28,139 nt of DNA from positions 1 through 28,139 of the forward strand of contig DXJG01000017.1 of assembly GCA_019056805.1 (NCBI GenBank), written 5' to 3'. Both the position numbers and the translations under genes were made by a program. A model generated the notes under the pieces. The model was not told where the DNA came from, did not search any database, and saw nothing but the letters and a program-made list of their open reading frames with translations. Below are positions 1 to 28,139 of the stretch, piece after piece. How positions within the stretch are numbered: the first letter of the stretch is position 1; each line of letters begins with the position of its first letter. Source of the stretch: Candidatus Baldrarchaeota archaeon (GTDB taxonomy: Archaea > Asgardarchaeota > Baldrarchaeia > Baldrarchaeales > DXJG01).

Positions 1-182
1 CCTTCAATCTAAGAAGCTTCAAGAACCTAACAATAAACATCGTAGGGAAAGGATACTTTAACACCCTAAGCAACGGTGAAAAAGAAAAAATAAGATCTCT
101 AATGAAGAAGAAAACACATAATTCAAAGAAAACAACAAAAACCCGCAAAGAAACCACATAAACAAATCTCAAACACAACACC
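1..182 (+). repeat. Left copy of a terminal inverted repeat (partner 27958-28139)
   Basis: Base-by-base comparison with the reverse complement of the window end gives 174/182 identity. Mismatches are at positions 26, 59, 75, 94, 99, 135, 167 and 170, all transitions. Similarity stops abruptly after position 182. Confidence 0.97.
3..161 (+). CDS. 3' end (52 codons) of an unknown protein entering from outside the window
   Basis: Open frame FNLRSFKNLTINIVGKGYFNTLSNGEKEKIRSLMKKKTHNSKKTTKTRKETT* ending at TAA 159-161. The same frame and stop are kept in the right-hand copy, with 3 synonymous and 3 non-synonymous changes (G/S, R/K, T/A). Family not recognised. Confidence 0.6.
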   Translation, partial: FNLRSFKNLTINIVGKGYFNTLSNGEKEKIRSLMKKKTHNSKKTTKTRKETT

Positions 183-352
183 CACAAATAAACCCCTCGA
201 CCCGTAGTTTCACCACTTCACCTAACGACACTAAGCCCTTAAACTCCACGTTTAAGGCTTAACGCGCGCTTAGCCTCAACAACCTCAAAAATCTTACTAC
301 TTAACTCCTCACTCTGTCCATTACCATCCATTTAACACAACACTTCATCATT

Positions 353-384
353 GATTTAATGATTTATTGATTTATCGATTTAAT
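353..384. repeat. Four tandem 8-bp units GATTTA(A/T)(T/C); possible DNA-binding-protein array
   Basis: gatttaat gatttatt gatttatc gatttaat read directly in intergenic sequence. Confidence 0.8.
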
Positions 385-486
385 AAAACAATACTATAAC
401 AAAGTATTAAACTTCTACTATACAAAATTAACACAGAAACCTAAATCCACAAATATAATCCTCACAATGTTAATGTAGTATTTCAG

Positions 487-542
487 CATTACAGTATTAT
501 GTTACATCAACATTACATTATTACATCATTTTATCATAATGC
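487..542. repeat. Degenerate 8-nt-periodic array around (C/T)ATTACAT
   Basis: cattacag tattatgt tacatcaa cattacat tattacat cattttat cataatgc. Related units at 770-777 (cattgcat) and 780-787 (atgtaatg, reverse complement of cattacat). Confidence 0.5.
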
Positions 543-884
543 TATTATTCCACCAAACTAGCAGGTCAAAATATATAGGTTAACTTAGAAACAATAGTTG
601 ATGCCGATACGTCGAGGATCAACTACCTCCAAAGAAGACAAAATATCGATTCTTATCCGAGTTTGTACCTCTACCACGGAAGTGTTTAATTTTAGCTATT
701 TTACCTACCTTAGAAGCCCCATTCCTCCTAGTTCATTAGCTAGACCTCATCGGGAGCTTTCACAACGAACATTGCATTGATGTAATGTATAGTTGAAACG
801 TTGTTGTATTACTTTTCTCCGCTACGGGTATGTGTTTATGGTAAAAATTCGAACTCCCGTATGAAAACATGAATGGTGATCAAA

Positions 885-1109
885 ATGTGCACAAGAAAAA
901 TATACACAAAAAAGAACCCTCCAGTGTTCATATTAGGGCAACTGCAGAAAGCAGTGTGGCAAGGTGAAGTGGCTAAAAAAGAACTTAAAAGTAGCATATG
1001 GAATAGAATACTTCCTTGGAGGAGAAGATACTACATGCACATTATACGGGAAGGTGAAACAGCTAAGAAACGGCTCGAAGAACTCTGGGAGTCACTGCCA
1101 GACGAATAA
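885..1109 (+). CDS. Small basic hypothetical protein (~74 aa)
   Basis: ORF 873-1109. GGTGA at 875-879 sits 5 nt before ATG 885, which suggests that start. No family recognised. Confidence 0.5.
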   Translation: MCTRKIYTKKNPPVFILGQLQKAVWQGEVAKKELKSSIWNRILPWRRRYYMHIIREGETAKKRLEELWESLPDE

Positions 1110-1186
1110 TTTAATCTCCTCTCTTTTTCATATACTCTTCATATGCCCTTGTTAACTCTTCTGATTTTGCCAAGAAGAACTGATTC

Positions 1187-1396
1187 TCATACATTGCTAA
1201 CCAAGACCAGTGGGTAGGTCCCAAGAGAATTAATGAAATTGTGAGGACCAGATCCCAAACGTTGCGTATCAGTGAAAACTAAGGTCGAACGAACCAGCAT
1301 GAATGTGACAGTTGAGCGTAAACATCCTTCTCCACATCTACTAATCTCATAAAATATCTCGCCATTTACACGACGCTTAAAGCCCTGAGGCAACAA
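1187..1396 (-). pseudogene. Possible degenerate C-terminal fragment of a DDE transposase (IS4/IS5/IS701-like)
   Basis: FKRRVNGEIFYEISR fits a Y-x2-R-x3-E-x6-K-type motif with F for Y and R for K. No upstream D residues or IS ends were identified. Confidence 0.3.
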
Positions 1397-2207
1397 CGCT
1401 TCAACAACCCAGAGGCATTATAAACACTTATCTTAAACAAGAGAAAGATCCTTAGACGTGACCCTATCCTGAATTCATCGCCAAAAAACAAAATACTTCC
1501 TCTGATTACATTTAAGTTTCATAATAACACCGTAAATACATAACAACTACTATAAATAATTAGTTCTTGATTTAAAACTTGCAGAATAGCCTCGTCTTTT
1601 GGCGGAACTTCAATGTAAGGGGACCCTAGGAAACTTTATTGTTAAAATTGAGGCAAGACTACCAGCTAATGGGTATATGATACCAACGCAGATAGCTGCA
1701 TTATTTGAAACAAGGGCGCTTAAACTAAATGCATCACCCACCTACCCACCCCCCTTATATGTATTAGGTAATGGTATAGGTATATATTGCGTTTGTCGGC
1801 TTAAGTGTACGTAAACCCTAGGTATCATAATAATATTTCTCTTGAGGTCGGTTCCCTTGACTCTAATAGTTTTTCAGTTCCTCCGACACATTTACCCTAC
1901 AGGTTAACGAGGAAAATTGCTGCTGATTACGCCCTTAGAAGCAAAATCTCCACCAAAGTGGGGAGGATGTCGATTTTTAAGCTCGGCCTCTGTACATCTA
2001 ATTTCTTTTGATGAATATAGATGTTGTCATGCTGGAGGAGTGTGATGCGAGAAGCTTGAAGAAGGGAGGTTTGAAAACGGTAACAATGGTAACATAACCA
2101 TACAACCAAAACGGAAAATATCACTAAGAATAAGGATGAGGAACTCGTAAATACATTTACTTTTATGTGGTAACAATAAGGTAATTAATGGTATCAGAGG
2201 TGATGTG

Positions 2208-2620
2208 ATGTTTACTTGGGAGGAACGTGCAAAAAGGGTTAAAGAACTTAGAGAAAAAGGATACACCTACAGAGAAATAGCAAAAAAGATGAAATGTCTT
2301 TTAGAGACATATCGAGGATTCTAAAAGGGGAAGAAAGGAAAGATGAAATAGATAAGCTTATGGAGAAAGTGAACGCAATCGAGAGGTGGATAACCCTTAG
2401 CAATAAGCAAGTGAACCTACTAAACAAAAAGGTGGAGGAAATCGGAAAAATCCTAGCCGATCCATACGAAAAATACAAGAAACTAAACAAAGAATCGGAA
2501 TTCGTAGTAATAGAGAAATATGTATGCCCTCAATGCGGACAGGCTGGATACGTCACCGTAAAAGTAAAATGCACAAAATGCGGGTACGAAAACTGGTGGG
2601 GCCACTGGAAATTCACATAA
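2208..2620 (+). pseudogene. HTH + coiled-coil + Zn-ribbon protein split by a -1 frameshift near 2282-2294
   Basis: SD GAGGTGA, then ATG 2208 gives MFTWEERAKRVKELREKGYTYREIAKKM (frame stops at 2322-2324). The -1 frame continues MSFRDISRILKG, completing an HTH, then a helical segment and CPQC...CTKC. Confidence 0.8.
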
Positions 2621-2762
2621 AACCCACACCAAGCCCATAAACAAAACCCACAAAGCACCCCTATCACAAACCAACCCAATAATCATAAAACCCTATCTAT
2701 ATCTTATTACCTAAGTAACAAGAACAAAAAGAAAAAATCAAAAATAATATTAAACCTGAAAA

Positions 2763-4370
2763 TTAAGAACAATAACCACATAACTTCAAAACCATATGCT
2801 CAAATCTCAGTAAAACATCTATAAAAGGAGCCAACATTTTAATTTTCCCAAAAATATTCCTCAAATTATCAATATCCTCCTCTTTAATCGCTCCCATGAC
2901 TGGTACTAAAACCAAATAAAATCCAACAAAAATCATCACAGCTAAAAACAAGTTAACTAAACAGCCAAACAAAGAAAAATAAGTAACCACCACAAAAACA
3001 GGAATTGCCGATAGAAAAGCAGCCAAATAAATCTTCACAACACTCTTCACGTCAAAACTCATACCAAACCTACACACAGCAACCCGCAACGCATACGCCA
3101 GCGACGTAACACCCGATATAATCATCGACACAATTAACCCCGGAACACCGTAAAACATTGTCAAAACCAAACCCAAAGGAACCCCAACAAAACAATTCAT
3201 CAAACTAATCCTAAAACTTATCTCCGTTCTACCAATTCCATTAAAGAAACTACTGACTACTAACGAGAATCCTATGTAAAGATAAGTTAAAACTAGCAAC
3301 GTCAAGAAAAACGGTGCCAAACTATACTTCACGCCGTAAAGAAAATAAACCAAGTCCTTAGAAATCAACGCAACAAGCATAGACGCCGGAACAATAACCA
3401 ACAAAATATACTTCAACGAATACCTAAAAAACTTCCTCAACTCACCTCTTTCCTTATTCAAATCAAATTTTGAAAAAGCAGGAAACAAAGCCGTAGATAT
3501 CGGAATCGCCAAAACACTAAGCAAAGAAAGAAAATTAGAAGCAACCATATAATTTCCTATCTCAAAATCTGAAGTAAACCACGCCAACACCATAGACCGA
3601 AACTGGCCTAAAAAGCTCAACAAGAGAACAGAAGAATAAAGAGGAACACCAAACCTAAACATAAAACGCAAATCCTCAAAAAAATTAAACTTCAAACCAG
3701 GATTACTATGCTCCCTATAAATCCTATAAACAATCAACACACCCAACAAACCCGCCACAACATAACTCACCATATGACCAACAAGCGCACCCATAATCCC
3801 AAAACCCAAAACAATAAGAAGTGGCGCCAAAACAACCTTCACAACAGACTCCGTCACCGAAGTCGCCGCACTCAACTCCATCCTATCCAAACCAACAAAA
3901 ACACTCTTAGTCGTGTTAAACAGTATCTGACAAATAATCAACAAAGACACTAATCGAATAAAAAACCCTATACCCGGCCTCTTCAAAACATACAAAGCAA
4001 AAAAATCTGAAAAAACAAACGAAACCAAAAAAAGCAAACATCCTACCGACAACTTAAACAAAAACCCATTTCTAATCAAACTCGCAACCCTAGCTTTCTC
4101 CCCTTCAACCCTGAACTGAGCCAAATACTTAATCAAAGCAGAATTAACACCAAAATCAGCAAACAATAACAAAAACCCGGGAACAATCAAAGAAACAGAA
4201 TACAAACCATAACTATCTGGACCCAACAAACGAGCAATAATAATCGAAGCCAACGCCAAAACAAATGTCGCAACCGTACTCCCCGTGAAAAGAAACAAAC
4301 CACCCCTAACAGAAACCTCCGCAACCTCCACAATCTTATTCAACGACCCCCTAGAATCATTTGCACTCAT
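2763..4370 (-). CDS. Wzx-like oligosaccharide flippase (MOP/polysaccharide biosynthesis exporter family)
   Basis: ~535 aa, ~14 hydrophobic segments, IARLLGPDSYGLYS, FADFGVNSALIKY and LFPAFS motifs. ATG 4370 follows GGTGGTGA (the ORF track extends to GTG 4385). Confidence 0.93.
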   Translation of the reverse strand: MSANDSRGSLNKIVEVAEVSVRGGLFLFTGSTVATFVLALASIIIARLLGPDSYGLYSVSLIVPGFLLLFADFGVNSALIKYLAQFRVEGEKARVASLIRNGFLFKLSVGCLLFLVSFVFSDFFALYVLKRPGIGFFIRLVSLLIICQILFNTTKSVFVGLDRMELSAATSVTESVVKVVLAPLLIVLGFGIMGALVGHMVSYVVAGLLGVLIVYRIYREHSNPGLKFNFFEDLRFMFRFGVPLYSSVLLLSFLGQFRSMVLAWFTSDFEIGNYMVASNFLSLLSVLAIPISTALFPAFSKFDLNKERGELRKFFRYSLKYILLVIVPASMLVALISKDLVYFLYGVKYSLAPFFLTLLVLTYLYIGFSLVVSSFFNGIGRTEISFRISLMNCFVGVPLGLVLTMFYGVPGLIVSMIISGVTSLAYALRVAVCRFGMSFDVKSVVKIYLAAFLSAIPVFVVVTYFSLFGCLVNLFLAVMIFVGFYLVLVPVMGAIKEEDIDNLRNIFGKIKMLAPFIDVLLRFEHMVLKLCGYCS

Positions 4371-4451
4371 ATTACTAATCACCACCCAAAACCGTACATG
4401 TCATTCAAACACTCCATCAACAACCTACTAAATTAACAACATGCAACAAAA

Positions 4452-6125
4452 CTAGCTCATAAGATAAACCAAATAGGTATTTCCTGCATCAAAAACACGA
4501 TTCGAGCCAACAAGCAAAGAAGCTTTTTCCAAACTTTCAACTGCTAATGAAGCATCAACATAAAAATATGGGAAAGCGTAAAGTCTAGGGGAAAAAACAA
4601 TCAAACCAGCATACCTATAAACTTGATCTGCAGGTACACGACTAAACCAAATGAACTTCGATGCCCTAATACTACTATTATACTTCACAGCAAAAAACAT
4701 AAACTGAGGAACATCTTTATCAGGAACAATAACCCTCCTAGAATCACCATAAAAACAAATAACATACCTATAAACCTCTATTTCAGAACTAGAAGGATGA
4801 TAAAAGGAAACAATTGAAAACTTAACCAGAAAAGAACAAAACAACAGACCAAAAACAGCAAACAACAATAGAAACCTACCAAAAACCTTAACCACTCTTC
4901 CCCCAACCCTAAGAAAACTAAAGGAGAAAGGTAATGTTAAAGCTAAAGGCAAACCAACAAAAATAAAAAATCTATCATAAACACCAGAAACACCAAAAAA
5001 CACCAAAGGAAAAACAAAACAATTAGAAACAATCCACAAAAGCAAAAACCTACCAGAAACATTCCTGCAACCCTTTACAAAAACATAAAACAACACGCAA
5101 ATAAAAATCAAAATCGTTTCTAAAAAGCCAAGAAAAATCTTCAAAACAACAATAAAACGATAAGAAGGAGAAAAAACTTCAAGAAAACCAAAAGAAAAAA
5201 CATAAAACAAAAACTCAACACCCTTAGCAGAAACAACATTCCAAACACGAAAGACATACCCTAAAATACTCAATTTCAAAAAATCCATCAAAAACCACAT
5301 AAAACCAGAAAACAAAAAAACGAGAAAAACTCTAACAAAAAAGCTTCCAAAACCCAGAAACGAAAACCAAAAAAGAAAGTTCACACCCAAAACAACAGGA
5401 GTAAGGGGATGAACAAAAAACAAACATAACAAAACAACACCAAAAAGAAAAATCCAGGAAAAAACCTTCCTAAAAGACTTATTACCACCACGAACAAAGA
5501 TTTTAGAGGAAATTAAACACCCGACACAGTAAAGCATGAAAGCAAAGGCCTGACGGCAAAAATGATCTTGATGAGCCCAATAAAAACTCATGAAAAAAAG
5601 AACAGAAAAGCCAGCAAATCCCTCTTTATCTAATTTCCTAAAAATACAATAAACCAAAACACTAGTAAAAATATAGAATAGGAGGCGAAACCACTTCATC
5701 AAAAACCAAACATCAAAACCAGAAACGAGACAAAAAACACTCCATACAATTAAAAACCCAGGACTTTCGTGCCCATGAGCAAAAACACCACCCCCACCCC
5801 TCAAAAAATCAACGACACCAGCACCATAAAAATAAACATCAGAAAACCAAGGATTAACAAACAAACCTTCAAAAGTCAACCAAATAAAAAACACCAGCAA
5901 AAAACTTGAGAATTTCCTCAAGAACCCAAAGCCAAACAAAACAGCATATAAAAGAACAATAACACCAAACCAAAACACAAAAGACAAACCGGAAAGAACA
6001 ACAAAAACACCGGGAGACAAAGAATCAAAAGAACGAAAAGAAACAAAAACTTCAAAAATAGCCAAAAGCAAACCCAAACAAAAAATAACAAAACAAAAAG
6101 AAAAACTGTATTTCAACCAATACAC
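4452..6125 (-). CDS. Polytopic membrane protein with a C-terminal soluble domain; candidate glycan polymerase or GT-C-like transferase
   Basis: 557 aa with more than 10 TM segments and polar loop motifs (SDVYFY, HESPGF, HQDHFCRQ, FVHP). Lies next to the flippase. Function is inferred. Confidence 0.7.
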   Translation of the reverse strand: MYWLKYSFSFCFVIFCLGLLLAIFEVFVSFRSFDSLSPGVFVVLSGLSFVFWFGVIVLLYAVLFGFGFLRKFSSFLLVFFIWLTFEGLFVNPWFSDVYFYGAGVVDFLRGGGGVFAHGHESPGFLIVWSVFCLVSGFDVWFLMKWFRLLFYIFTSVLVYCIFRKLDKEGFAGFSVLFFMSFYWAHQDHFCRQAFAFMLYCVGCLISSKIFVRGGNKSFRKVFSWIFLFGVVLLCLFFVHPLTPVVLGVNFLFWFSFLGFGSFFVRVFLVFLFSGFMWFLMDFLKLSILGYVFRVWNVVSAKGVEFLFYVFSFGFLEVFSPSYRFIVVLKIFLGFLETILIFICVLFYVFVKGCRNVSGRFLLLWIVSNCFVFPLVFFGVSGVYDRFFIFVGLPLALTLPFSFSFLRVGGRVVKVFGRFLLLFAVFGLLFCSFLVKFSIVSFYHPSSSEIEVYRYVICFYGDSRRVIVPDKDVPQFMFFAVKYNSSIRASKFIWFSRVPADQVYRYAGLIVFSPRLYAFPYFYVDASLAVESLEKASLLVGSNRVFDAGNTYLVYLMS

Positions 6126-6265
6126 CTAGCACTCTAACTTTTTAACATACGTTTGTTGCTGCATTTATAACCTCCATCTTCGTGGCTAGAAAAGCATTGC
6201 TAGCATGCTTAATTAATTCGGTATTGGATATAATAACCTTTAACAATGGAGGAATATTTTTCACT

Positions 6266-8325: not shown

Positions 8326-8331
8326 ATTAAA

Positions 8332-20259: not shown

Positions 20260-21261
20260 TCACAACGCCTTTATATATCTCAAAATTATTCCTATACCCT
20301 TGATGTTGGTTAGTGGTAATTTGATTATTTCGTTTAGCGTGTTTTGTTTGTTTTGTAGTCCTTTGGTTATTTTTTCAATGTAGCATTTGGTGATTTCTAG
20401 TAAATTTGGCTTGTATGGTGGGTAATTATTTTCTACATTGCTAAGTAGGATCTGGCTGGTGTTCGTTGAACCACCTATTAGAGTTTTTAAATATTGTTCT
20501 GTGAGGTTAAGTGTTGAGGTGAGGCCCTCGGTTTCAGCTAGCTTGATGAGCCTTTCTCGCGATTTTAGTTCTCTTAATCTGTAGTGAATGTCAAGTATGT
20601 CTGCTAAGTTTATCCTTAGTTCCTTGAGTATAGCGTGGGCGGCGGTTATAAGTGTGGAATATTCTATTGATGGTATGGGCAGTTTGATATCCACGTCGTT
20701 GTGTCTCACTTTGATGAGGTACTTACTTTTTAGGACGTTTTTTGTGTTTACATAGCTTATACTTGATGCTGCTAGTTTATAATGCACGTCTACCATTAGA
20801 TTTACGCCTTTTACATATTTGTATAGAGTTGTTTCTGCGGGCCCCCATCCTTCCACCTTTAGGTTTAGCTCTATCTTTAGCAACTTAATGAGTTGCTTGT
20901 ATTGGCTTTTTTCAACTAAAAGGTCGATATCGTCTCCAACGTAGATGAAAGGCTTGATAGTTTTGACGACGACTAGTTCGATGTTATGTTTTTTGGCTAG
21001 CTTACATATACTGTCCAATAGTATCAGATCTAGTACGAGTTTTTTCCTTAGCTTTTTTTCTTTTCTCCTCAGGGGACTTGGTAGGTTTATTGGGATTTCT
21101 AGTTTTTTTATTTGTTCCATAAAGAGTATTAACACCTTATTTTTGGATGAGAGCTCGGCTAGGGTTTTAAACTTTGTTCTTATGGCATTTTTTTCATTGT
21201 TTGTTAGCTCTTCTTTTGTTAGTGTTTTCATTAGGAGTTTTGTTAGGGTTAGAGGTTTCAT
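20260..21261 (-). CDS. Nucleotidyltransferase family protein (DNA pol beta fold)
   Basis: VVKTIKPFIYVGDDIDLLV with a D-x-D pair, later VDVHY and AAHAI. ATGA overlap with the upstream GT4. Confidence 0.8.
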   Translation of the reverse strand: MKPLTLTKLLMKTLTKEELTNNEKNAIRTKFKTLAELSSKNKVLILFMEQIKKLEIPINLPSPLRRKEKKLRKKLVLDLILLDSICKLAKKHNIELVVVKTIKPFIYVGDDIDLLVEKSQYKQLIKLLKIELNLKVEGWGPAETTLYKYVKGVNLMVDVHYKLAASSISYVNTKNVLKSKYLIKVRHNDVDIKLPIPSIEYSTLITAAHAILKELRINLADILDIHYRLRELKSRERLIKLAETEGLTSTLNLTEQYLKTLIGGSTNTSQILLSNVENNYPPYKPNLLEITKCYIEKITKGLQNKQNTLNEIIKLPLTNIKGIGIILRYIKAL

Positions 21262-22457
21262 TTTACCGTCTTTAGGTAAAGGTTTATGTGTTTTTTCGCT
21301 ATGCTACTCCAGTTATGTTGTTGTTTGAGGATTTTCATTTTCCTTTTTAGGGCTTTGCAACTTTTTTGGTTTAATAGGATCATCTCCACGGCTTTTCTTA
21401 ACTCCTCTTTATCATTTGGTTTTATCAATAGCATGTAATCTCTGTATTCGAGGAATCTAGGCATTTTGGTTGCTATCACAGGCTTTTCGTGCGCTATGGC
21501 TAGTGATAGAGGCCCACTTGCGGCTAGTATGTTTTCATCGAGATAGTTGAGGATTACAAGGTCAGCTTTGACGTGTAAATATTCGATTATTTTCCAGGGG
21601 TTGTTTATGAATAACTTTATTTTGTCTTGTAGTGCCATTTTGTTAATTTTGTTGATAATTTTTTTGAGGTATTTTGGGCTTTCTGGTGATGTTACGGGGT
21701 TGCATGAGCCAGCGATTATTAGGTTTAAGTTTTTTATGTTTTTTGAAATAGTATTGAATGTTTCGATTATTATTTCTATTCCTTTGTCGGGTCTTATGGT
21801 GCCGAATGTTAGGATTGTTTTTTTAGTTTTTTCTTCATTGTACTGTGTGTGTTTTGTCTGGGGGATTCCGTGCGGGATTACATAGAGCTTTTTCTCTGGG
21901 ATTCTGTATTCGTTCGTTAGTATATGTTTCATTATGTTGAGGTGGATAATGATAGCGTTAGATAGTGCGCATAGGATTTTTATGTAGGTGAATGCGAACA
22001 ACTTAAATAATGTTATTGAGAGTTTTGTTTTGTGGAATTTTTTGAAGTTATTGGTTAGGGTTTTAAGCGGTGTGAGGCCGTGTAGGGTTATTATGATTTT
22101 TTTGTTGCTGATTTTTAAGAGTAGAAGTAGTAAGAGTAGGTGGGTGGATTTTAATCCCCGTCCATAGAGCCAGTATTCGTGATGTACATGTAATAACTTT
22201 ACGTTGTCTTTGACTGCTTGTTTGAATACTTTAAACGGATATATTATAGATTTATGGTTCCATGAAAATTTTACGGTTAAGTTCTTTTTGATTTGGTTTG
22301 TGGTAGGCTTTGTAATGGAAGGGGGTCTGTGTGCGTATATTATGATTTTGAGGTTCTGTGTTATTGAAGATATGTTTGTGTAAAGGTATTTTGAGTAGTC
22401 AGCTAACCCACTTAGTTCGGGGGGGTAACTGGTTACTACTCCTATTTTAAAAGCCAT
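21258..22457 (-). CDS. GT4 glycosyltransferase
   Basis: SYPPELSGLADY, VIPHGI, FGTIRPDKGIE, ASGPLSLAIAHEKPVIAT. Confidence 0.92.
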   Translation of the reverse strand: MAFKIGVVTSYPPELSGLADYSKYLYTNISSITQNLKIIIYAHRPPSITKPTTNQIKKNLTVKFSWNHKSIIYPFKVFKQAVKDNVKLLHVHHEYWLYGRGLKSTHLLLLLLLLKISNKKIIITLHGLTPLKTLTNNFKKFHKTKLSITLFKLFAFTYIKILCALSNAIIIHLNIMKHILTNEYRIPEKKLYVIPHGIPQTKHTQYNEEKTKKTILTFGTIRPDKGIEIIIETFNTISKNIKNLNLIIAGSCNPVTSPESPKYLKKIINKINKMALQDKIKLFINNPWKIIEYLHVKADLVILNYLDENILAASGPLSLAIAHEKPVIATKMPRFLEYRDYMLLIKPNDKEELRKAVEMILLNQKSCKALKRKMKILKQQHNWSSIAKKHINLYLKTVK

Positions 22458-23392
22458 ATTGCTAAGACTCCGTAGATAAATCCTACTACGACTGTGGCTG
22501 TGAATAATATTGATAATGCCATGTGGATAAGTGTTCTTTTAGGCTTCTCGAGGAGATGTTTGGGGTATTTGAAGGCTAGTTTTTTAATTATTTCTTTGAG
22601 GTATTTACGTTCCACATTTAACGTTGTTGACTCTTCGTATGTCGTTTTGAGCAATGCTTTGGTTATGCCTTGGTTGAAGGCTCTTTTAATGAGATAGCTC
22701 AGCCTTATTCTATGTGCCAATATTCTATGGTGAATTATGGCTTTTGGATTGTATAGTATACCTTTGTTAAACTTTTTTAGACATCTGATGCAGAATTCTG
22801 TTTCGTCGCCCTGTGTTAGTTTTTCCCTTTTAAGTCCTAAGTTTTCGTTGAATAAACCTATGATGTTAAAAATTTCTCTCTTGAAAGAGATGTTTGAACC
22901 AAATGTGTTACGTACTTCGGTGATATTATTGGAATGCAGGGGGTTCGAGGTTAATCCGATGAGCCAGTAGAATTCTTCGGGTAGCCACCATGGTATTTTT
23001 CCCAATGGATATATAGGACCTCCTATGCCATAGGATGATGGATATTGGTTGTAGGTTTTCACTAGTTCTTCTACCCATTTGCCGTCAGCTATAGCATCGT
23101 CGTCCATAAAGCAAACGATTTCACCTTTTGCATTTAGGATGCCAAGATTCCTACTTGTTGAAATCCCTTTTTTACCTGAGTTGAGGAGCAGTCTAATGTT
23201 GTTTTTAGCTATGTTTTTCATTTTTTTGTGGAGTGTTTTGTAAAGTTTATGATTGTTATCTACGACCAATAATATTTCTATGTTAGGATATGTTTGTTGT
23301 AGTATGCTGTTTATTGCTTCCACTAGAAATTTTTTGTTTTCAGATTTATGAGTTGTTATGATGACCGAGACCAGGGGTTGTTGTGTTTTCAT
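22442..23392 (-). CDS. GT2 glycosyltransferase resembling haloarchaeal AglG-type hexuronosyltransferases
   Basis: VSVIITT, FMDDDAIAD, WLPEEFYWLIG, RNTFGSNISFKRE, GDETEFC. The AglG likeness is from recalled motifs and substrate is not established. Confidence 0.88.
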   Translation of the reverse strand: MKTQQPLVSVIITTHKSENKKFLVEAINSILQQTYPNIEILLVVDNNHKLYKTLHKKMKNIAKNNIRLLLNSGKKGISTSRNLGILNAKGEIVCFMDDDAIADGKWVEELVKTYNQYPSSYGIGGPIYPLGKIPWWLPEEFYWLIGLTSNPLHSNNITEVRNTFGSNISFKREIFNIIGLFNENLGLKREKLTQGDETEFCIRCLKKFNKGILYNPKAIIHHRILAHRIRLSYLIKRAFNQGITKALLKTTYEESTTLNVERKYLKEIIKKLAFKYPKHLLEKPKRTLIHMALSILFTATVVVGFIYGVLAIWLLK

Positions 23393-23410
23393 GCTCTGGT
23401 TTCTATAAGT

Positions 23411-24118
23411 TTATGTTAGTATCCTTATGATGTTCAGATGTGTTTCAGCTATGTTTTTGTTATCGGTTTTTTCGATTGGTACGTTTAATATTTTGGCTAT
23501 TTTTTTGTATAGTAATCTTTGGATTTCTATTAATTGGCGGGGTTCGCATATGTTGTTTCGTCTATTTTTAATGGTTTTGTAACTTGAATCTAGCATTATT
23601 AATTTTGTCTTGTCTTTTGCGAGTATTTTTAATAAAGTTTTCACGGGTATGCTTTGTAAGATCTCGAGGCTTTTTGTGGCTATTGTCATGTGGATTATTG
23701 TGTCTGGCAGATATCTGTCAGCTATTATTGTATAGCCAAAAAGTCTAGGTATATATACGTTTATTATCAGTTTAGTGATAACACTAATAAGTTCTAGCCA
23801 TGACCAGATGGTTCGACTTATACTGTTTGAGTAGGCAAGTATATGTGTAATTATGGCATTGGTAGGGAGTCTTAGTACGCTTTGTGGTGATATTTTTTCT
23901 AGGAATTTTAGCATGATGTAAGCTAATGTGTGATTATTCTTTATCCAGACATGTTTTACTTTAAACCCTTTTCTCTTAAGTTTATATGCCAGTAGTCTAG
24001 CATGTGTGGTTTTTCCAGCACCATCAGGGCCGAATATCGAAATAATATGGACTCTTCTTCCTACATGTGATGATATAGGTTTGTGAATGCCTTTTTGATC
24101 GTGAGGAAATGTTGGCAT
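23411..24118 (-). CDS. Thymidylate-kinase-like P-loop kinase (paralog 2)
   Basis: ISIFGPDGAGKTT and IIADRY. Start placed at ATG 24118 (235 aa, matching paralog 1). The longer ORF call overlaps the real gene 24190-24510. Confidence 0.83.
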   Translation of the reverse strand: MPTFPHDQKGIHKPISSHVGRRVHIISIFGPDGAGKTTHARLLAYKLKRKGFKVKHVWIKNNHTLAYIMLKFLEKISPQSVLRLPTNAIITHILAYSNSISRTIWSWLELISVITKLIINVYIPRLFGYTIIADRYLPDTIIHMTIATKSLEILQSIPVKTLLKILAKDKTKLIMLDSSYKTIKNRRNNICEPRQLIEIQRLLYKKIAKILNVPIEKTDNKNIAETHLNIIRILT

Positions 24119-24189
24119 GTCTGTATGACTTACGTTAGTTATGGGGATAGTAAAATAGATTTTGGAGAATTGAGAGTGTTCGTTATGAT

Positions 24190-24510
24190 TTATGTTTCTT
24201 TTTCTTCTTTTGTTTCTTGGGTTTCTAATTGTTTTAGTTCTTGTTCTAGTTCTTTTTCTATTTCTTCTATTGGTTTTGGTGGTGGTGTTGTTGCGAGGGT
24301 GTAGCCTATCCATGCTAGAATGAATAGTACTGCGGTCATTGCTAGCCATACTATTGTTATGGGTATGGTTATTAGGTTGATGTTTGGTGTTGGTATTATG
24401 TTTTGTAGGTTTGGAAATAGGATTAGTAGGAATCCGTAGACTGTGTATAGTATCCATATTATTATCGCTGCAACGAGCATGCCTCCTCCTATAATTCTAT
24501 CTTTACTCAA
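24190..24510 (-). CDS. Small two-TM membrane protein with a TTPPPKP + acidic coiled tail; DPM2-like candidate
   Basis: 106 aa: two hydrophobic helices, then AWIGYTLATTPPPKPIEEIEKE. Starts 27 bp downstream of a Dol-P-sugar synthase-like GT2. Confidence 0.8.
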   Translation of the reverse strand: MSKDRIIGGGMLVAAIIIWILYTVYGFLLILFPNLQNIIPTPNINLITIPITIVWLAMTAVLFILAWIGYTLATTPPPKPIEEIEKELEQELKQLETQETKEEKET

Positions 24511-24536
24511 AACTCATTCACCTCTACCTTTCTTTT

Positions 24537-25256
24537 TTATTTTGGGGTTGGTTTTGTTATGGCTGTTTTTAGGTTTGTGGTTATGTTTTTTATTATTTGC
24601 AGTGCTATTATTATTCCGTGTTTTATTTTTAGTTTTTTCATACCTAGACGTTTTCGATATTTTATTGGTATTTCTATGATCTTTTGTTTAAGGCTTTTTA
24701 TATAGTTGTTTATTTCTACTTCTATTTCGAAGTGTTTTGACATTGGTTTCCAGTTTTTTATTGTTTGCCATTTTATTGCGCGTAGTCCTGTTAGGGGGTC
24801 TTTCATTTTTACTTTGTTTAGGTAATGGTGTAGTGTTTTTAGTATTAGGTTTCCCAGACCATATATATCTGTTAGGTAGTTTTTTAGGGTGTGGGTGTGG
24901 AATCTGTCTCCTGTTACCATGCCTACGTCTGGGTTTTTTTCTAGGATTTGTATCATTTTTGCTGCTGGTTTTGCTGGGTATGTGTGGTCTCCATCGGTTA
25001 TTATTATGTATTTTGGGTTGTGGTTTTTTTGTTTTAGGTGTTGTATTGCTGTTTTTATTGCGTTTCCTTTTCCTTTTCCTTTTTGTTGTATTACTTCTGC
25101 TCCTAGGTTGCGGGCTATTTGCTGGGTTCCGTCGGTACTTCCTCCGTCTACTACAAGTATGTGGGCGTTTGGGAAAACTTTTTGGTATTCTTTTATTGTG
25201 GGTCCGATTCCGGGGGCTTCGTTTAGGGTTGGTATTATGATGGTGAGTTCGGTCAC
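24537..25256 (-). CDS. DPM1-like GT2 (polyprenol/dolichol-phosphate glycosyltransferase)
   Basis: IIIPTLNE, VVDGGSTDGT, GKGNA, ITDGDHTY, GDRF, DPLTGLRA, FEIEVE, EIPIKYRKRLG. Soluble 239 aa. GTG start after GGAGGAGG. Confidence 0.92.
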   Translation of the reverse strand: MTELTIIIPTLNEAPGIGPTIKEYQKVFPNAHILVVDGGSTDGTQQIARNLGAEVIQQKGKGKGNAIKTAIQHLKQKNHNPKYIIITDGDHTYPAKPAAKMIQILEKNPDVGMVTGDRFHTHTLKNYLTDIYGLGNLILKTLHHYLNKVKMKDPLTGLRAIKWQTIKNWKPMSKHFEIEVEINNYIKSLKQKIIEIPIKYRKRLGMKKLKIKHGIIIALQIIKNITTNLKTAITKPTPK

Positions 25257-25355
25257 TACGCCCCTCCTCCGTTCCCCTTTCCTTTTTCTCTTTGATTGTG
25301 TAAAATTAGTTCTTTGAATTTAATGGGATTGTAATTTAGATTTTGGGAATTGGAG

Positions 25356-25419
25356 TATTATATATATATATAGCCCAGGATAAAATTGGGCTACGGGTGG
25401 TTTTTTGTTGTTCCACCCG
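25356..25419. promoter_or_regulatory. Putative promoter/operator region: TA run plus two abutting 7-bp inverted repeats
   Basis: TATTATATATATATATA, then TAGCCCA-N9-TGGGCTA (25371-25393) and CGGGTGG-N12-CCACCCG (25394-25419), about 100-160 bp upstream of the first cluster gene. Confidence 0.4.
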
Positions 25420-25798
25420 CAAGTTTTGTCGTTTGTTGTTATTTGTAATGGTACCATACTATATGGGTAATTATATGTTATTGGGTTTGTGGTATATAAG
25501 GTTTAGTGTGGGTTGTTATTTGTATGGTCTTATATGTTCTGGGTTGTTTTTATTGTGTTTTGATGTTTTTTGTCTGGGTATTCTTGTTTTAAAGATGTTT
25601 TATTATATATTGTTGTAATAAATATTGCATCATTTTTGATAACGTTTTTACCAAGATTTTTAGGTTAATTTGTTTTCTTGTGTTATTATTGTTTTAGAAT
25701 TTAGTATATGTGTTTATGTTGAAAGGTATAAAGGGTCAAACTTAGGATTTTTATTTTTGGTTTTTGAATGTTGTAAAACTGTTTCTGGGAGATGGTTG

Positions 25799-25954
25799 AT
25801 GATTATAGAAATTGTGGATGAGAATTTTGAGAAGAGAGTTGGGGAGTGAGGGAAGTTCGCTGTTATTTTTCATGGTGTGGTTGAATACAGTTGTGGAGGG
25901 TATTTGGTTATGTTTGTTAGTGTTTGTGTAGATGATAGGATAGGTGTGTTGTGA
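25799..25954 (+). pseudogene. Possible thioredoxin-like remnant
   Basis: MIIEIVDENFEKRVGE*GKFAVIFHG...LVMFVSVCVDD resembles a thioredoxin N-terminus and the V-x-V-D strand. In-frame TGA at 25847, no WCxxC. Confidence 0.3.
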
Positions 25955-26045
25955 TGGTTGAAGTTTAAGGTTTGTTAAGCTGTGTGTTTTGGATTGGACA
26001 AAAGATATATATTGCTTTATGGCAATATGTCTTTATGGTGGTTTT

Positions 26046-26321
26046 ATGATTAGGGCAAAGATTGATGAGAGGCTTGAACGTAGGTTTAGGGAGTTGGCTA
26101 TGAAGAGGTTTGGTTATGGTAAGGGTGCTCTTAGTAAGGCTGTTGAGGAGGCTATTTTAAAATGGGTGTCTTTGGTTGGGAGGGAGGAAGTTATTTTTGA
26201 GGGGGATCCTGTGGAAGCTATAGATGGGTTGCTTTCAGATGTTAATATTGGTTCTGTGAGGCTTCAACATAAAATTAAGGAATTTTGGATGGGTAAGGTT
26301 GCTGGAAATGTATCTGGTTGA
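26046..26321 (+). CDS. Ribbon-helix-helix (CopG-like) antitoxin
   Basis: MIRAKIDERLERRFRELAMKRFGYGKGALSKAVEEAILKW has a beta-alpha-alpha pattern. ATG 26046 follows GGTGG. Overlaps the PIN gene. Confidence 0.8.
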   Translation: MIRAKIDERLERRFRELAMKRFGYGKGALSKAVEEAILKWVSLVGREEVIFEGDPVEAIDGLLSDVNIGSVRLQHKIKEFWMGKVAGNVSG

Positions 26322-26721
26322 TACAAATATTTTTCTTGAGGTATTGCTTTCGCAGAGAAGGAAGGATGAATGTAAGAAGTTTCTTGGTATGTTAAGGAAT
26401 GGAAAGGTGGAGGGTGTGGTGACTGATTTTACAATTCATTCAATAATAGTTTTGATGGATGGGCTTGGGAAGTTGGATGAGTTAAAGGTGTTTCTTTCAA
26501 GTCTTACAGCGTATAAGGGGCTATATGTATACACTACTTCCATATTTGATGAGGTAAATGCTGTTGAGGTTGCTAAGAAAAATAATTTGGATATGGATGA
26601 TGCAGTGCAATATGTAGCTGCTCTTTCAATAAATGCTGATGCAATAGTTTCTTTTGATCATGATTTCGATAATCTAGGAATACCTCGGAAGGAGCCTAAA
26701 CAAATAATTAAGGTGGTTTAG
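26308..26721 (+). CDS. vapC: PIN-domain (VapC-type) ribonuclease toxin
   Basis: YLVDTNIFLE, LDMDDAVQY and IVSFDHDFD carry the acidic PIN residues. 14-nt overlap with the upstream antitoxin. Confidence 0.92.
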   Translation: MYLVDTNIFLEVLLSQRRKDECKKFLGMLRNGKVEGVVTDFTIHSIIVLMDGLGKLDELKVFLSSLTAYKGLYVYTTSIFDEVNAVEVAKKNNLDMDDAVQYVAALSINADAIVSFDHDFDNLGIPRKEPKQIIKVV

Positions 26722-27091
26722 GACAGCTAGCTGTGTTGGTTATATTTTTATAATGTGCTGAGAAAGTGATAAGAATTGTTGGGAAACTTAAATCCGTTTT
26801 GAGATGTTTAATCTAGGTTTAGGAGATGAATGGACCTTAAACTATGTTTATTGGAAAATATGAAGTAATAGTTCCTGATGGTGGTTATCTACTTAAGTTT
26901 AGTTTAAGTTTTAGTGTGATGTTTATATTTGTATATGAGAATAGAAATATGAACCTCAATTCTGGTTAGCAGCTGTTAACCAGAGAGGATATTGAAAGAT
27001 GTTGTCAAGTTTTGGAATGGGTTGTGTTTGCTGGTTGTTGTGTGATGGTTGGTTTTATATATTTTGTTTTGTATTTTATTTTGGTGGTTTG

Positions 27092-27445
27092 ATGGTTGAG
27101 CTTAGTGATAAGGTTAAGGAGTTTATTACTAAAACTGTTAGGGAGGAAATTGTGAAGATTCTACCTTTAACCATTGTCACTAGGGAAGATTTACGATTAG
27201 CGATTGAAACAATGAATAAAAGGTTTGAGAATCTACAAAAAAACTTGGATAGGCGTTTTGAAGACTTGCAGAAATATTTGGATAGGTGTTTTGAGGCTGT
27301 TAATGGTCGTTTTGAGGATATGAATCGTAGGTTTGAAGATATGAATAAAAGGTTTGAGGATATGTTTCGTTTGCTTCGGTTAATGTTTATTGTTTTGTCT
27401 CTGCTTATTGCTGTTTTTGGCTTTCTAGGGATGTATATTGTTTAG
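27092..27445 (+). CDS. Membrane-anchored coiled-coil repeat protein (117 aa)
   Basis: ATG 27092 follows GGTGG. VTREDL, RFE-based repeats, C-terminal TM helix. Confidence 0.8.
   Translation: MVELSDKVKEFITKTVREEIVKILPLTIVTREDLRLAIETMNKRFENLQKNLDRRFEDLQKYLDRCFEAVNGRFEDMNRRFEDMNKRFEDMFRLLRLMFIVLSLLIAVFGFLGMYIV
27221..27370 (+). repeat. In-frame tandem repeats: 2 x 33 nt followed by 4 x 21 nt
   Basis: RFENLQKNLDR / RFEDLQKYLDR, then CFEAVNG / RFEDMNR / RFEDMNK / RFEDMFR. Confidence 0.9.
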
Positions 27446-27471
27446 TTAATATTTCGTGTTATTTAGTTTTA

Positions 27472-27846
27472 ATTAAGTTTAAGTATTCTAGGGAGATGAA
27501 TGGCAGGCTGCATAGGTGGAGTTTCCGCAAATTCCAGTTCATCATAGAATATAAGGCTAAGTTGAATGGAGTTCCTATAATTTATGTTGATGCTAAAGGT
27601 ACTTCCACTTACTGCCCGATATGTGGGGCAAAACTAAGCCCGAATGGGCACAGAACATTAAAATGTAAAAAATGCAGATTAATCGCTGATAGAGACATTA
27701 TAGGCACTTGGAACATTAGGTTAAGAGGTTTAAAGCAGATAGATGTGGGGAGCCCCGTTCCCCCCGAAAGCCCGTCGATGAACCCTGAGACGGGAAGACT
27801 CTCCGCTACAAATATATCAAAAGTTATAAAAGTAACGGAGAGTTAG
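27472..27846 (+). pseudogene. tnpB: 5'-truncated TnpB of an IS200/IS605- or IS607-type element
   Basis: KYSREMNGRLHRWSFRKFQFIIEYKAK, VDAKGTSTYCPICG, CKKC and DRDIIGTWNI (Zn ribbon and RuvC-III). The N-terminal ~two thirds, including RuvC-I/II, and tnpA are absent. Confidence 0.92.
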
Positions 27847-27850
27847 AACG
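27745..27850 (+). ncRNA. Candidate omegaRNA/sotRNA scaffold at the IS right end
   Basis: GC-rich island with stems CCCGTC/GACGGG (27771-27794) and CTCTCCGCTAC/GTAACGGAGAG (27799-27842, 10/11 paired). Position at the tnpB 3' end matches known TnpB guide-RNA loci. Ends are not defined. Confidence 0.45.
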
Positions 27851-27957
27851 GTGTGAAACGTTTAGGTATTTTGTTTGAGTGTGTTTTGATGAGAATTGAT
27901 GTTGTTGTATAATTTCCATGTAAGTTGCTATGGTGATAAGTTTTGTTTTTAGTGATA

Positions 27958-28139
27958 GGTGTTGTGTTTAAGGTTTGTTTATGTGGTTTCTTTGCGGGTT
28001 TTTGCTGTTTTCTTTGAATTATGTGTTTTCTTCTTCATTAAAGATTTTATTTTTTCTTTTTCACTGTTGCTTAGGGTGTTGAAGTATCCTTTCCCTACGA
28101 TGTTTATTGTTAGATTCTTGAAGCTTCTTAGATTGAAGG
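27958..28139 (-). repeat. Right copy of the terminal inverted repeat (partner 1-182)
   Basis: Reverse complement matches 1-182 at 174/182 positions, in exact register with the window ends. Confidence 0.97.
27979..28137 (-). CDS. 3' end of the paralog of the gene at 3-161, entering from outside the window
   Basis: FNLRSFKNLTINIVGKGYFNTLSNSEKEKIKSLMKKKTHNSKKTAKTRKETT*. Confidence 0.6.
   Translation of the reverse strand, partial: FNLRSFKNLTINIVGKGYFNTLSNSEKEKIKSLMKKKTHNSKKTAKTRKETT

Follow-up and report, generated by a model that had tools for sequence, protein, structure and literature searches.

Mirror-image strand skew in the flanks of an exchanged glycan gene cassette of an Asgard archaeon

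The window analysed here (28,139 nt) is one entire contig of a Baldrarchaeia-like Asgard genome of 1.9 Mb, and it holds a single glycan-biosynthesis gene cluster. The left arm (2400-6150) carries two minus-strand genes: a Wzx-type oligosaccharide flippase (2763-4385; Polysacc_synt, 5e-34) and a 557-aa polytopic membrane protein (4452-6125), the last gene of this arm, for which no Pfam family was found. Both genes are intact and under purifying selection; dN/dS against relatives is 0.29-0.39 for the flippase and 0.40 for the membrane protein. The core (6266-20077) is a glycan cassette encoded wholly on the minus strand. By Pfam it contains two phosphodiesterase-family genes, four GT4 genes, one GT2 gene, a methyltransferase, a P-loop kinase-like gene and an unknown 581-aa protein; these have no close relatives (best match 58% identity), and the named matches are from TACK archaea. 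The right arm (20100-27500) starts with minus-strand glycan genes (20260-25256) assigned by Pfam to NTP_transf_5, GT4, GT2, P-loop kinase-like, small membrane protein and GT2. On the plus strand follow a putative antitoxin, a PIN-domain toxin (PIN, 2e-10) and a coiled-coil membrane protein (25989-27445).

Keto skew, defined as (G+T-A-C)/N, was calculated on the plus strand segment by segment. The initial annotation had described a mirror-symmetric skew, and this description is exact: the left arm is A/C-rich (-0.47, z -28.6), the core is neutral (6200-20100; -0.01, z -1.3) and the right arm is G/T-rich (+0.32, z +27.1). All six of its hand-counted 60-mers are reproduced on recount; A+C is 52/60 at 121-180 and at 5281-5340, and G+T is 25 at 12001, 44 at 21661, 49 at 25021 and 47 at 27061. 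AT skew and GC skew co-vary along the window. The block edges lie between genes, as had been proposed. Skew goes from about -0.5 to 0 in the left junction (6126-6265; step near 6150, D = +0.52) and from 0 to about +0.3 in the right junction (20078-20259; step near 20300, D = +0.31). In the left arm the skew is greatest beside the core. The right arm is weakest beside the core (+0.2-0.3) and climbs to +0.45 at 24.6-26 kb, 4-6 kb out. At the left arm, on host contig C9 and in the relative L028, skew instead decays outward; the right-arm gradient calls for a further assumption, for example replacements of differing age nested within one another.

Each arm also holds a small neutral block. In the left arm, this is at 600-2400 (-0.07), bounded by a sharp downward skew step near 2600; it has no long ORF, no Pfam match and no paralogue in the genome, and is probably a later insertion or replacement. 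In the right arm, it is the segment 27496-27900 (+0.03 at 27500-27900) with a C-terminal fragment of a Cas12f-like TnpB (27496-27846, plus strand; Cas12f1-like_TNB, 7e-19). The fragment is of neutral composition, is 83% identical in nucleotides to C17:336725-337022 and is a later insertion into the arm. Outside these blocks, the distal left-arm piece (1-500) is again skewed (-0.33, z -7.4); a 77% match links its positions 272-336 to C17:338633-338697, in the 5' part of a flippase pseudogene that lies at the C17 contig end. The contig ends form a 192-nt inverted repeat (1-192 and 27948-28139; 94% complementary). A second comparison gives 95.6% over 182 nt, with differences mainly transitions. 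The left copy, which extends to the exact contig end, is A/C-rich on the plus strand, and the right copy is G/T-rich (+0.47).

The skew is independent of gene direction and peaks at silent sites. At four-fold degenerate sites read on the plus strand, base frequencies are A.64, C.21, G.06, T.09 in the left arm and A.37, C.15, G.18, T.30 in the core; in the right arm they are A.14, C.08, G.26, T.52 for minus-strand genes and A.21, C.03, G.18, T.58 for plus-strand genes. The skew is therefore a property of the DNA strand and not of the transcript. In coding sense, third-position keto skew is +0.73 (flippase) and +0.67 in the two left-arm genes, -0.08 to +0.11 in ten large core genes, -0.34 to -0.79 in right-arm minus-strand genes and +0.50 to +0.64 in right-arm plus-strand genes; coding strands are accordingly G/T-rich in the first and last of these groups and A/C-rich in the right-arm minus-strand genes. 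Protein composition is shifted, as the initial annotation had noted. The F+V+G+C+W share is 32-45% in left-arm proteins (45% in the 557-aa membrane protein), 19-22% in the core and 8-17% in right-arm minus-strand proteins. The T+P+H+Q+N+K share follows the reverse trend and reaches 31-44% in the last group.

The left arm is present in three metagenomic relatives (L028, L029 and L030) with 83-87% nucleotide identity and equal skew; each time it is joined to a different unskewed core. The L029 homologue of the 557-aa protein is 72% identical. L029 aligns with the window from 3144 to 6085, about 40 nt from the left junction (skew edge near 6140); its next 8 kb are neutral and unrelated. L030 aligns only at 2726-3781, a truncated and frameshifted flippase remnant; the 10 kb ahead of it belong to another neutral core, again unrelated. 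The arms of L029 and L030 are 93% identical, while their cores have no homology. In L028, the arm runs on beyond the flippase gene with a different sequence, and the skew is kept. Because the same skewed arm is joined to differing cores, with breakpoints at the skew edge or within the truncated flippase gene, the core is a swapped cassette. This directly supports an earlier suggestion that the core is a recent neutral insertion between two old arms. Comparison is confined to the left junction; for the right arm, the best protein identity is 46%, with none in the genome collection and at most 29% in 40 relatives.

In a further relative, G004, contig C68 has an A/C-rich arm containing the orthologue of the flippase together with NTP_transf_5 and kinase homologues; the arm ends abruptly, giving way to at least 28 kb of neutral DNA. 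In the window, the NTP_transf_5 and kinase homologues lie across the core from the flippase, in the same orientation as in G004 and with opposite skew. Skew is thus set by position and is not carried along with the gene.

Strand-biased substitution is still active in the left arm. The window served as outgroup for polarising substitutions along the lineages of L028 and L029; all are read on the G/T-rich strand. A>G occurs at 0.087 per site against 0.027 for G>A (Fisher p = 5e-4), and C>T at 0.062 against 0.019 for T>C (p = 3e-3). At third codon positions, A>G (0.25) and C>T (0.235) exceed the reverse changes (0.026 and 0.033) 7-10 times per site. Keto gains and losses are near balance (41 to 31), a sign of equilibrium.

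The window is one case of a genome-wide process. About 20% of the host genome length (about 380 kb) lies in skew patches, and sharp steps number 22 up and 3 down (11 to 0 with a stricter cut). The steps occur at tRNA genes and cassette edges; of the eight sharpest, four coincide exactly with tRNA genes, which point in either direction. The layout of arm, neutral core and arm recurs at a second glycan locus (C17:268-278 / 278-294 / 294-306.6 kb), around a core with HEPN-MNT, a Cas6 fragment and CARF (C9:529-551 / 551.5-558 / 558.6-566 kb) and on C18, where the arms reach 30-40 kb. The initial annotation had allowed that the host might flip its keto skew as a matter of course, or that skew might track transcription; the former is the case and the latter is not.

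These data bear on the possibility that the window arose by structural accident or is a replicon of its own. One arm may have been inverted, the arms may be foreign and derive from a source with skewed DNA, or the contig may be a linear element (plasmid or virus) that ends in inverted repeats and carries its origin internally. The 192-nt repeat exactly at both contig ends and a mirror symmetry that spans the entire contig would fit such an element. This group of readings is nevertheless very improbable. The same layout is found within large chromosomal contigs and in G004; the window shares its flippase and TnpB remnants with the end of chromosomal contig C17, and its genes are for glycans, apart from a PIN pair and a TnpB fragment, with none for replication, partition or virions. 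The arms have no similarity to each other past the 192-nt repeat. Neither random inversion nor random insertion of skewed DNA is compatible with steps that run upward 22 to 3, and the right-arm genes keep their G004 orientation despite the opposite skew; both results speak against the inverted arm proposed earlier.

An origin inside the window had also been proposed. The polarity is indeed origin-like, but the window contains no Orc1/Cdc6 gene, tRNA or Rfam RNA, and a search for ORB-like motifs gives 7 matches against 9.2 expected. The two Orc1/Cdc6 copies of the genome are located elsewhere (C6:~62 kb and C9:~46 kb). Upward steps, which lie at tRNA genes and cassette edges, number at least 22 in the 1.9-Mb genome, too many for origins. 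A site of repeated cassette exchange, and not a classical replication origin, is the best reading of the window.

A broader form of replication initiation is unlikely but has several points in its favour. Here, the steps would be sites of bidirectional synthesis in each cell cycle, either many weak origins or R-loop- or D-loop-primed starts at tRNA genes and island borders; the exposed lagging-strand template near the start would be deaminated, and the core would be too young for skew. The G/T-rich strand follows leading-strand travel as at bacterial and eukaryotic origins, and the bias is continuous and close to equilibrium. Near-saturated silent sites require very many events or a process acting in every generation, which replication-type initiation fits at least as well as occasional exchange. 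The long C18 arms are also accommodated, and recombination-dependent, origin-independent replication is documented in archaea (review PMC12999951). A weaker upward step about 2 kb upstream of the C6 orc1/cdc6 indicates that origin firing may leave the same footprint; however, one such step may be due to chance (roughly 10% expectation), and the second orc1/cdc6 (C9:45 kb) has none. In addition, skew decays within 4-10 kb at the majority of steps, and the step in the window consists of two half-steps that coincide with recombination breakpoints.

The favoured reading, to which we assign a probability of about 0.5, is that the window is a replacement-type flexible genomic island for surface glycans, with a swapped 14-kb core (6.2-20.1 kb) and older flanks under a strand-asymmetric bias from outward recombination-primed synthesis. 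The core would have been exchanged recently via homologous recombination, its composition still ordinary, while the flanks would be older residents held near compositional equilibrium by a continuing transition bias. C>T and A>G would be favoured on the strand that runs 5' to 3' outward, meaning the minus strand in the left arm and the plus strand in the right arm. We infer that DNA synthesis primed by recombination most likely begins at the exchange point and proceeds outward, for example during break-induced replication or gap repair of a homing-like kind (SDSA). The nascent or displaced strand may remain single-stranded for long in a thermophile, or may be copied with G.T-type errors, and so gain G and T. 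Each arm would be traversed in a single direction; a heterologous cassette that is new, or is traversed both ways, would stay neutral. The neutral later insertions within the arms support this reading. The same process would act at each exchange or break hot spot of the genome, including tRNA genes and defence cassettes.

Two other recombination-based mechanisms may be considered. Biased gene conversion by the mismatch endonuclease NucS/EndoMS is improbable; G/T-type mismatches in recombination heteroduplex would be cut and converted and A/C-type mismatches tolerated, giving a fixation bias whose sign depends on the invading strand and is mirrored across the exchange point. A NucS gene is present (C9:111129-111464, 106 bits), the skew is associated with exchange sites and it lies purely on the keto/amino axis, which is reportedly the axis of NucS specificity. 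GRINS, the closest bacterial analogue, are most common in Streptomyces; Actinobacteria also depend on NucS. However, the predicted sign rests on an assumed invading strand and an assumed resolution of the cut heteroduplex, NucS is widespread in archaea without such skew, and the genome also encodes a MutS_V-domain protein. Ends-out integration of linear donor DNA, with homology arms drifting in mirror image, is more doubtful still. Single-stranded 3' tails, formed by the plus strand at the right end and by the minus strand at the left, would be deaminated before pairing, or G/T-rich tails would be favoured by the recombinase; RecA-family proteins prefer TGG/GT-rich single strands (PMC3763553). 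By our own derivation the polarity is correct, and a core that is never single-stranded would be neutral with sharp edges at the homology boundary. This mechanism predicts maximum skew at the fragment ends, whereas the maximum lies beside the core at the left arm, C9 and L028. Steps at tRNA genes without a cassette and arms of 30-40 kb are hard to explain, and the expected events are too few for silent-site saturation.

In replication-associated asymmetry, the leading strand is G/T-rich and skew jumps upward at origins. The window resembles this in jump sign, GC/TA co-variation, independence of gene direction and silent-site maximum. It differs in its far greater amplitude (A.64 vs T.09 at four-fold sites), in the shortness of its domains (kilobases only), in the dozens of jumps across 1.9 Mb, which sit at tRNA genes and cassette borders, and in a locus without an Orc1/Cdc6 gene or ORB excess. 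In animal mitochondrial DNA, C>T and A>G changes in its single-stranded state make the heavy strand G/T-rich. The two transitions, the strand and the effect on protein composition are the same, and the four-fold amplitude is comparable; however, the window is part of a cellular chromosome in which many foci are each flanked by two mirrored arms, while the mitochondrion has a single-replicon gradient.

GRINS are repeats of >500 bp that are >80% identical within one cluster; their skew changes sign within about 1 kb, and they are described in bacteria and a few eukaryotes (2021, PMC8256042). Like the window, they carry GC and TA skews that are correlated and intense (well above 0.15), that lie in functional coding DNA and that peak at third codon positions, together with amino-acid shifts between Gly/Val/Cys/Trp and Pro/Thr/His/Gln and a tie to gene conversion or exchange. 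The window arms, in contrast, are archaeal, unique in sequence except for the 192-nt end repeat, 4-8 kb long and of fixed left/right polarity around a neutral cassette. Meiotic double-strand-break hotspots show strand-asymmetric mutagenesis of resected flanks (Hinch et al. 2023, PMC7615360); they share a kilobase mirror-image asymmetry around a recombination initiation point, with C and A affected on the exposed strand. The forward strand is exposed left of the break (PMC7615360), which would make the plus strand G/T-rich on the left, whereas it is A/C-rich there in the window. Since this polarity is opposite, damage to surviving 3' tails at a focal break is not the sole cause.

Replacement flexible genomic islands are glycan, O-chain or S-layer clusters swapped by homologous recombination (Lopez-Perez et al. 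2014, PMC4033161). As in the window, a surface-glycan cluster differs wholly in gene set at one locus in close relatives, exchange is via conserved border genes, and a mostly silent-site substitution anomaly is concentrated at the borders. Their border signal is an extra peak of synonymous SNPs with no strand polarity reported (PMC4033161), whereas keto/amino skew at the cassette borders in the window is close to saturation over kilobases and opposite in sign on the two sides. In this Asgard archaeon, flanks rewritten in mirror image would thus mark a site of recurrent gene-cassette exchange.

The window is an entire contig (C8; 28,139 nt) of the host genome, which comprises 1.92 Mb in 18 contigs with 35.5% G+C. 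All genes between 2763 and 25256 lie on the minus strand and form part of a glycan-biosynthesis cluster. The left arm carries a Wzx-type flippase gene; the other minus-strand genes encode a polytopic membrane protein (557 aa), two phosphodiesterase-family proteins, five GT4 and four GT2 glycosyltransferases, one methyltransferase, an NTP_transf_5 protein and two P-loop kinase-like proteins (11572-12288 and 23411-24457). The kinase-like genes are too diverged (27% identity to each other) to be used as a pair for a substitution spectrum. To the right of the glycan genes are a PIN-domain toxin with its putative antitoxin, a coiled-coil membrane protein and a C-terminal fragment of TnpB.

Keto skew on the plus strand, (G+T-A-C)/N, divides the window into an A/C-rich left arm (2400-6150; skew -0.47, z -28.6), a neutral core (6200-20100; -0.01, z -1.3) and a G/T-rich right arm (20100-27500; +0.32, z +27.1). 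With |z| of 27-29 in the arms, chance is ruled out as the cause. The counts of 60-mers made by hand in the initial annotation are all reproduced exactly, and the skew edges lie between genes as it had claimed, in the intergenic gaps 6126-6265 and 20078-20259. GC skew and AT skew change together along the window; in size they reach 0.4-0.5 and 0.4-0.6, respectively, in the left arm, and 0.2-0.68 and 0.1-0.5 in the right arm. The arms are not inverted copies of each other, as the only match between them is a 192-nt end repeat. Two neutral interruptions are found inside the arms: the TnpB fragment and a block at 600-2400, which has no paralogue in the genome and no Pfam match.

Four-fold degenerate sites, read on the plus strand, are richest in A in the left arm (A.64, C.21, G.06, T.09) and are more even in the core (A.37, C.15, G.18, T.30). 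They are richest in T in the right arm, both in minus-strand genes (A.14, C.08, G.26, T.52) and in plus-strand genes (A.21, C.03, G.18, T.58). Both gene orientations in the right arm share one DNA-strand bias, and minus-strand genes are biased oppositely in the two arms; transcription-coupled skew is therefore ruled out.

Skew peaks at third codon positions, which in most arm genes surpass the other two, and the bias extends to the proteins. The residues F, V, G, C and W together make up 32-45% of left-arm proteins, 19-22% of core proteins and 8-17% of the products of right-arm minus-strand genes; T, P, H, Q, N and K make up 10-13% in the left arm versus 31-44% in right-arm minus-strand genes. 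The flippase reaches 32-39% F/V/G/C/W and one glycosyltransferase 39% T/P/H/Q/N/K. Homologues from outside the lineage have a composition intermediate between the extremes of the two arms. The PIN-domain (VapC-like) gene overlaps an upstream 110-aa ORF by 23 nt (25989-26721), which is a typical toxin-antitoxin layout; both genes are recoded G/T-rich by the right-arm bias.

A metagenome scan with the flippase as query recovered three loci (L028, L029 and L030) related to the left arm. Their arms are 93-96% identical among themselves and 83-87% identical to the window, and their third-position skew (+0.77 to +0.88) is stronger than that of the window. L029 matches window positions 3144-6085; the match ends about 50 nt before the skew edge and is followed by 8 kb of unrelated neutral DNA. 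The match of L030 is confined to 2726-3781, the 3' part of the flippase gene, which is truncated and frameshifted there; ahead of this remnant is a third unrelated neutral core, of 10 kb, which has no homology to that of L029. Three unrelated cores (those of the window, L029 and L030) are thus found behind a common left arm, and they contain GT4, methyltransferase or kinase-type genes. Among the explanations proposed in the initial annotation, the recent insertion of a neutral core between old arms is supported by these loci, and the comparison indicates that the core of the window is a recently swapped cassette. L028 provides information on the opposite side: its arm extends 3.3 kb beyond the flippase gene with decaying skew, in sequence unlike window 1-2700. 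This continuation supports a later arrival of the neutral 600-2400 block than of the arm. In L029, a P-loop kinase homologue beside the arm (7605-8258) has no DNA-level homology to the window and a third-position skew of +0.28; the remaining core is at about 0 to 0.08, except for one gene at +0.22. The kinase homologue may be a cassette gene that is starting to take on the bias of the arm.

More distant relatives are few. The 40 related genomes contain no close orthologues of arm or core genes; the best match is a flippase with 47-48% identity in G004, a genome from a different family of the same order. The flippase homologues P0002, P0008 and P0009 are 60-82% identical, and the named homologues of the window flippase include one Baldrarchaeia MAG. 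Core genes also lack close relatives (best match 58% identity), and their named matches come from TACK archaea. For the right arm, no relatives were found in protein, genome-collection and 40-relative searches. Glycan-gene loci of other Asgard families are neutral in a small sample (n=15); in the same sample, same-genus and same-order loci are skewed.

The bias is still active. Differences between L028 and L029 were polarised by parsimony, with the window as outgroup, and read on the G/T-rich strand. Per-site rates over all positions are 0.087 for A>G against 0.027 for G>A, and 0.062 for C>T against 0.019 for T>C; at third codon positions the corresponding values are 0.25, 0.026, 0.235 and 0.033. 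Both contrasts are significant by Fisher's exact test (A>G versus G>A, p = 5e-4; C>T versus T>C, p = 3e-3), and errors in parsimony polarisation would reduce them and could not produce them. In the same set G<>T transversions are balanced, and keto changes come close to the balance that equilibrium predicts, with 41 gains and 31 losses. Selection on the arm genes is purifying (dN/dS 0.29-0.40).

G004 also bears on how the skew is established. Positions 1-12 kb of its contig C68 form an A/C-rich arm, in which skew is independent of gene strand and which gives way abruptly to at least 28 kb of neutral sequence. This arm contains the flippase orthologue, which is also G/T-rich in the coding sense, followed directly by NTP_transf_5 and kinase homologues. 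In the window, homologues of these last two genes lie across the core from the flippase, oriented as in G004 but with the opposite skew; at 27-31% identity they could be paralogues. Unless they are paralogues, this arrangement indicates that skew is written in place according to the side of the exchange point on which a gene lies. With the same reservation, inversion of one arm of the window, another proposal of the initial annotation, is rejected as the explanation.

Local skew is common in the host genome. The SD of 1-kb keto skew is 0.109, compared with about 0.03 expected from sampling, and some 380 kb (20% of the genome) is in 2-kb windows with |skew| > 0.15. Strongly skewed genes are found on either strand with skew of either sign, and the skew of oppositely oriented neighbouring genes is still correlated genome-wide (r = 0.46). 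The initial annotation had named two observations that would count against its reading. The first, routine flipping of skew in the host, is found in the form of these patches; the second, skew that follows transcription, is not.

The layout of A/C-rich arm, neutral core and G/T-rich arm recurs at three further places. On C17 (268-278, 278-294 and 294-306.6 kb) it belongs to another glycan locus, whose core includes a paralogue of the flippase. On C9 (529-551, 551.5-558 and 558.6-566 kb) the core is occupied by a HEPN-MNT pair, a Cas6 fragment and CARF genes. On C18, arms of 30-40 kb flank a 3-kb centre. Beside these last two, the C9 core includes an ORF-free stretch of 1.7 kb (552942-554634), possibly a CRISPR array, for which Rfam at the gathering threshold gives no match.

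Sharp steps in keto skew are strongly directional: 22 rise and 3 fall from left to right (1-kb half-windows, difference > 0.3), and above 0.4 there are 11 upward and no downward steps. The three downward steps include one within the window, at the edge of its neutral block. Four of the eight sharpest steps are exactly on tRNA genes, in either orientation, and three are at cassette edges, including that of the window. Two of these four tRNA genes contain introns and were detected by Rfam alone (102 nt each; C9:10334-10435 and C17:70458-70559; 51 and 58 bits). ARAGORN detected neither, even when allowing for introns, and each lies exactly on a top-ranked step.

The initial annotation had also suggested a replication origin inside the window. 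The upward polarity of the jump is that of an origin, but at least 22 comparable jumps occur in 1.9 Mb, several of them on tRNA genes. Genome-wide, only two genes match the Cdc6_C family, at about 62 kb on C6 and about 46 kb on C9, and the window contig has none; likewise, Pfam finds no orc1/cdc6 among the ORFs of the window. Matches to an ORB-like consensus, which may not be that of Asgard origins, number 7 at up to 3 mismatches against 9.2 expected. The core has no repeat family, and the window has no tRNA or Rfam RNA. A classical (Orc1/Cdc6-type) origin in the window is therefore rejected.

On C6, a weaker upward step (59100-61416; third-position skew from -0.44 to +0.41/+0.49) is found about 2 kb upstream of one orc1/cdc6 gene; the other such gene (C9:45031-46218) has no step. 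The C6 step could be a true oriC with the same footprint, or chance. Replication initiation in a broader sense is kept as a live explanation of the skew pattern: very many events are needed for the observed bias, the skew profile of the right arm rises outward, and the C6 step lies close to an initiator gene. An extended version is unlikely, namely that the skew steps map the DNA-synthesis start sites of the lineage. These would be fixed, number dozens per 2 Mb, be recombination- or R-loop-primed and origin-independent, and lie at tRNA genes, at island borders and near orc1; the glycan locus would be one of them, having only just received a new cassette. If true, a close relative of eukaryotes would have a eukaryote-like, multi-site replication landscape.

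The polarity of the skew restricts the possible mechanisms. The strand that gains G and T always runs 5' to 3' away from the exchange point; in the left arm this is the minus strand, which gained them through A>G and C>T. In human meiosis, the single strand that survives and is damaged on the left side of a hotspot break is the forward one, and C and A are lost from the forward strand on the left and from the reverse strand on the right (PMC7615360). Damage to resected tails at the focus would make the plus strand G/T-rich on the left; the opposite is seen, and such damage is therefore ruled out as the main cause.

Three geometries, derived here by argument rather than by computation, are compatible with the polarity. 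In the first, synthesis would begin at the focus and proceed outward, through origin firing, break-induced replication or homing-like gap repair; in gap repair, each 3' end would copy across the heterologous cassette into the far arm. Ends-out integration of a linear donor fragment, by way of its 3' tails, also fits the polarity. So does strand-selective handling of G/T-type versus A/C-type mismatches in heteroduplex DNA, and a NucS/EndoMS gene is present in the genome. Gap repair or outward synthesis is favoured because it would explain the neutral core (which would be either new or crossed in both directions) and the sharp inner edges at the homology boundary with outward decay, and because it covers tRNA genes as well as cassettes.

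The contig ends carry an inverted repeat of 192 nt (1-192 and 27948-28139; 94-96% identical), which reaches the last base at each end; differences between the copies are mostly transitions. The repeat could border a 27.7-kb segment that is able to invert, or be no more than the point at which the assembly broke. The right end of C17 (334400-338768) contains scattered pieces of a flippase pseudogene with stop codons, 78-83% identical at the nucleotide level to window 2695-4344. The TnpB fragment is also present there in another copy, which shares 83% identity with window 27475-27772. This region looks like a graveyard of earlier cassette exchanges. The shared remnants suggest that C8 adjoins C17; the window contig is therefore probably chromosomal and located near that end, amid the remnants of earlier exchanges.

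The bias also affects gene prediction. ORFs on the T-poor strand are inflated because stop codons are rare there. The 348-aa ORF at 23411-24457 has an N-terminal extension of 130 residues rich in T, N, K, R and H, which overlaps a plausible 106-aa membrane protein (24190-24510) in a different frame; the true start of the kinase-like gene is probably near 24050. Long false ORFs are also found on the opposite strand, e.g. 24737-25240 and 20945-21328. A local, strand-polar substitution bias can thus be strong enough to recode functional proteins, with consequences for homology searches, phylogeny and, since the T-poor strand has few stop codons and hence long false ORFs, gene calling in these genomes. 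For uncultured archaea, the skew also offers a sequence-only marker of exchange hot spots: an abrupt rise in keto skew, split by neutral DNA, points to a recently replaced cassette and locates its borders. As the polarity excludes the best-documented recombination footprint and favours outward DNA synthesis or strand-selective mismatch processing, metagenomes can be used to test how DNA is replicated and repaired in the prokaryotes most closely related to eukaryotes.

Cassette exchange by itself is ordinary. Glycan replacement islands with a border peak of silent substitutions are known from bacteria and from one archaeon (PMC4033161). The window, L029 and L030 likewise carry different clusters of the same function at one locus in close relatives, and the Wzx flippase, GT4 (five), GT2 (four), methyltransferase and phosphodiesterase-family genes of the window correspond to the surface or glycosylation function of such islands. 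What the window adds is comparative evidence that a skew edge is a recombination breakpoint, together with a polarised substitution spectrum, a genome-wide count of upward versus downward steps and an argument from polarity against the resected-tail model.

A linear replicon with terminal inverted repeats would share the 192-nt end repeat, but the window has no replication, partition or structural genes; the remnants common to the window and chromosomal contig C17 also argue against it. The strand geometry is the opposite of that published for resection asymmetry at double-strand break hotspots (PMC7615360). A 2026 survey of archaeal skews does not mention Asgard archaea or local keto skew (PMC12999951), and no description of such mirror skew, nor anything closer than these systems, was found in the literature searched. 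The arms resemble the unexplained GRINS of bacteria: mean |GC| and |TA| skews exceed 0.15, are positively correlated and peak at third positions, and proteins shift between Gly/Val/Cys/Trp and Pro/Thr/His/Gln. GRINS are also defined by a duplicated region of more than 500 bp that is more than 80% identical to another region of the same cluster (PMC8256042), whereas the sole internal repeat of the window is the inverted end repeat; in addition, GRINS lack the fixed polarity of the window skew. The two may have a common cause, and the skew of the window is a local strand asymmetry tied to exchange hot spots.
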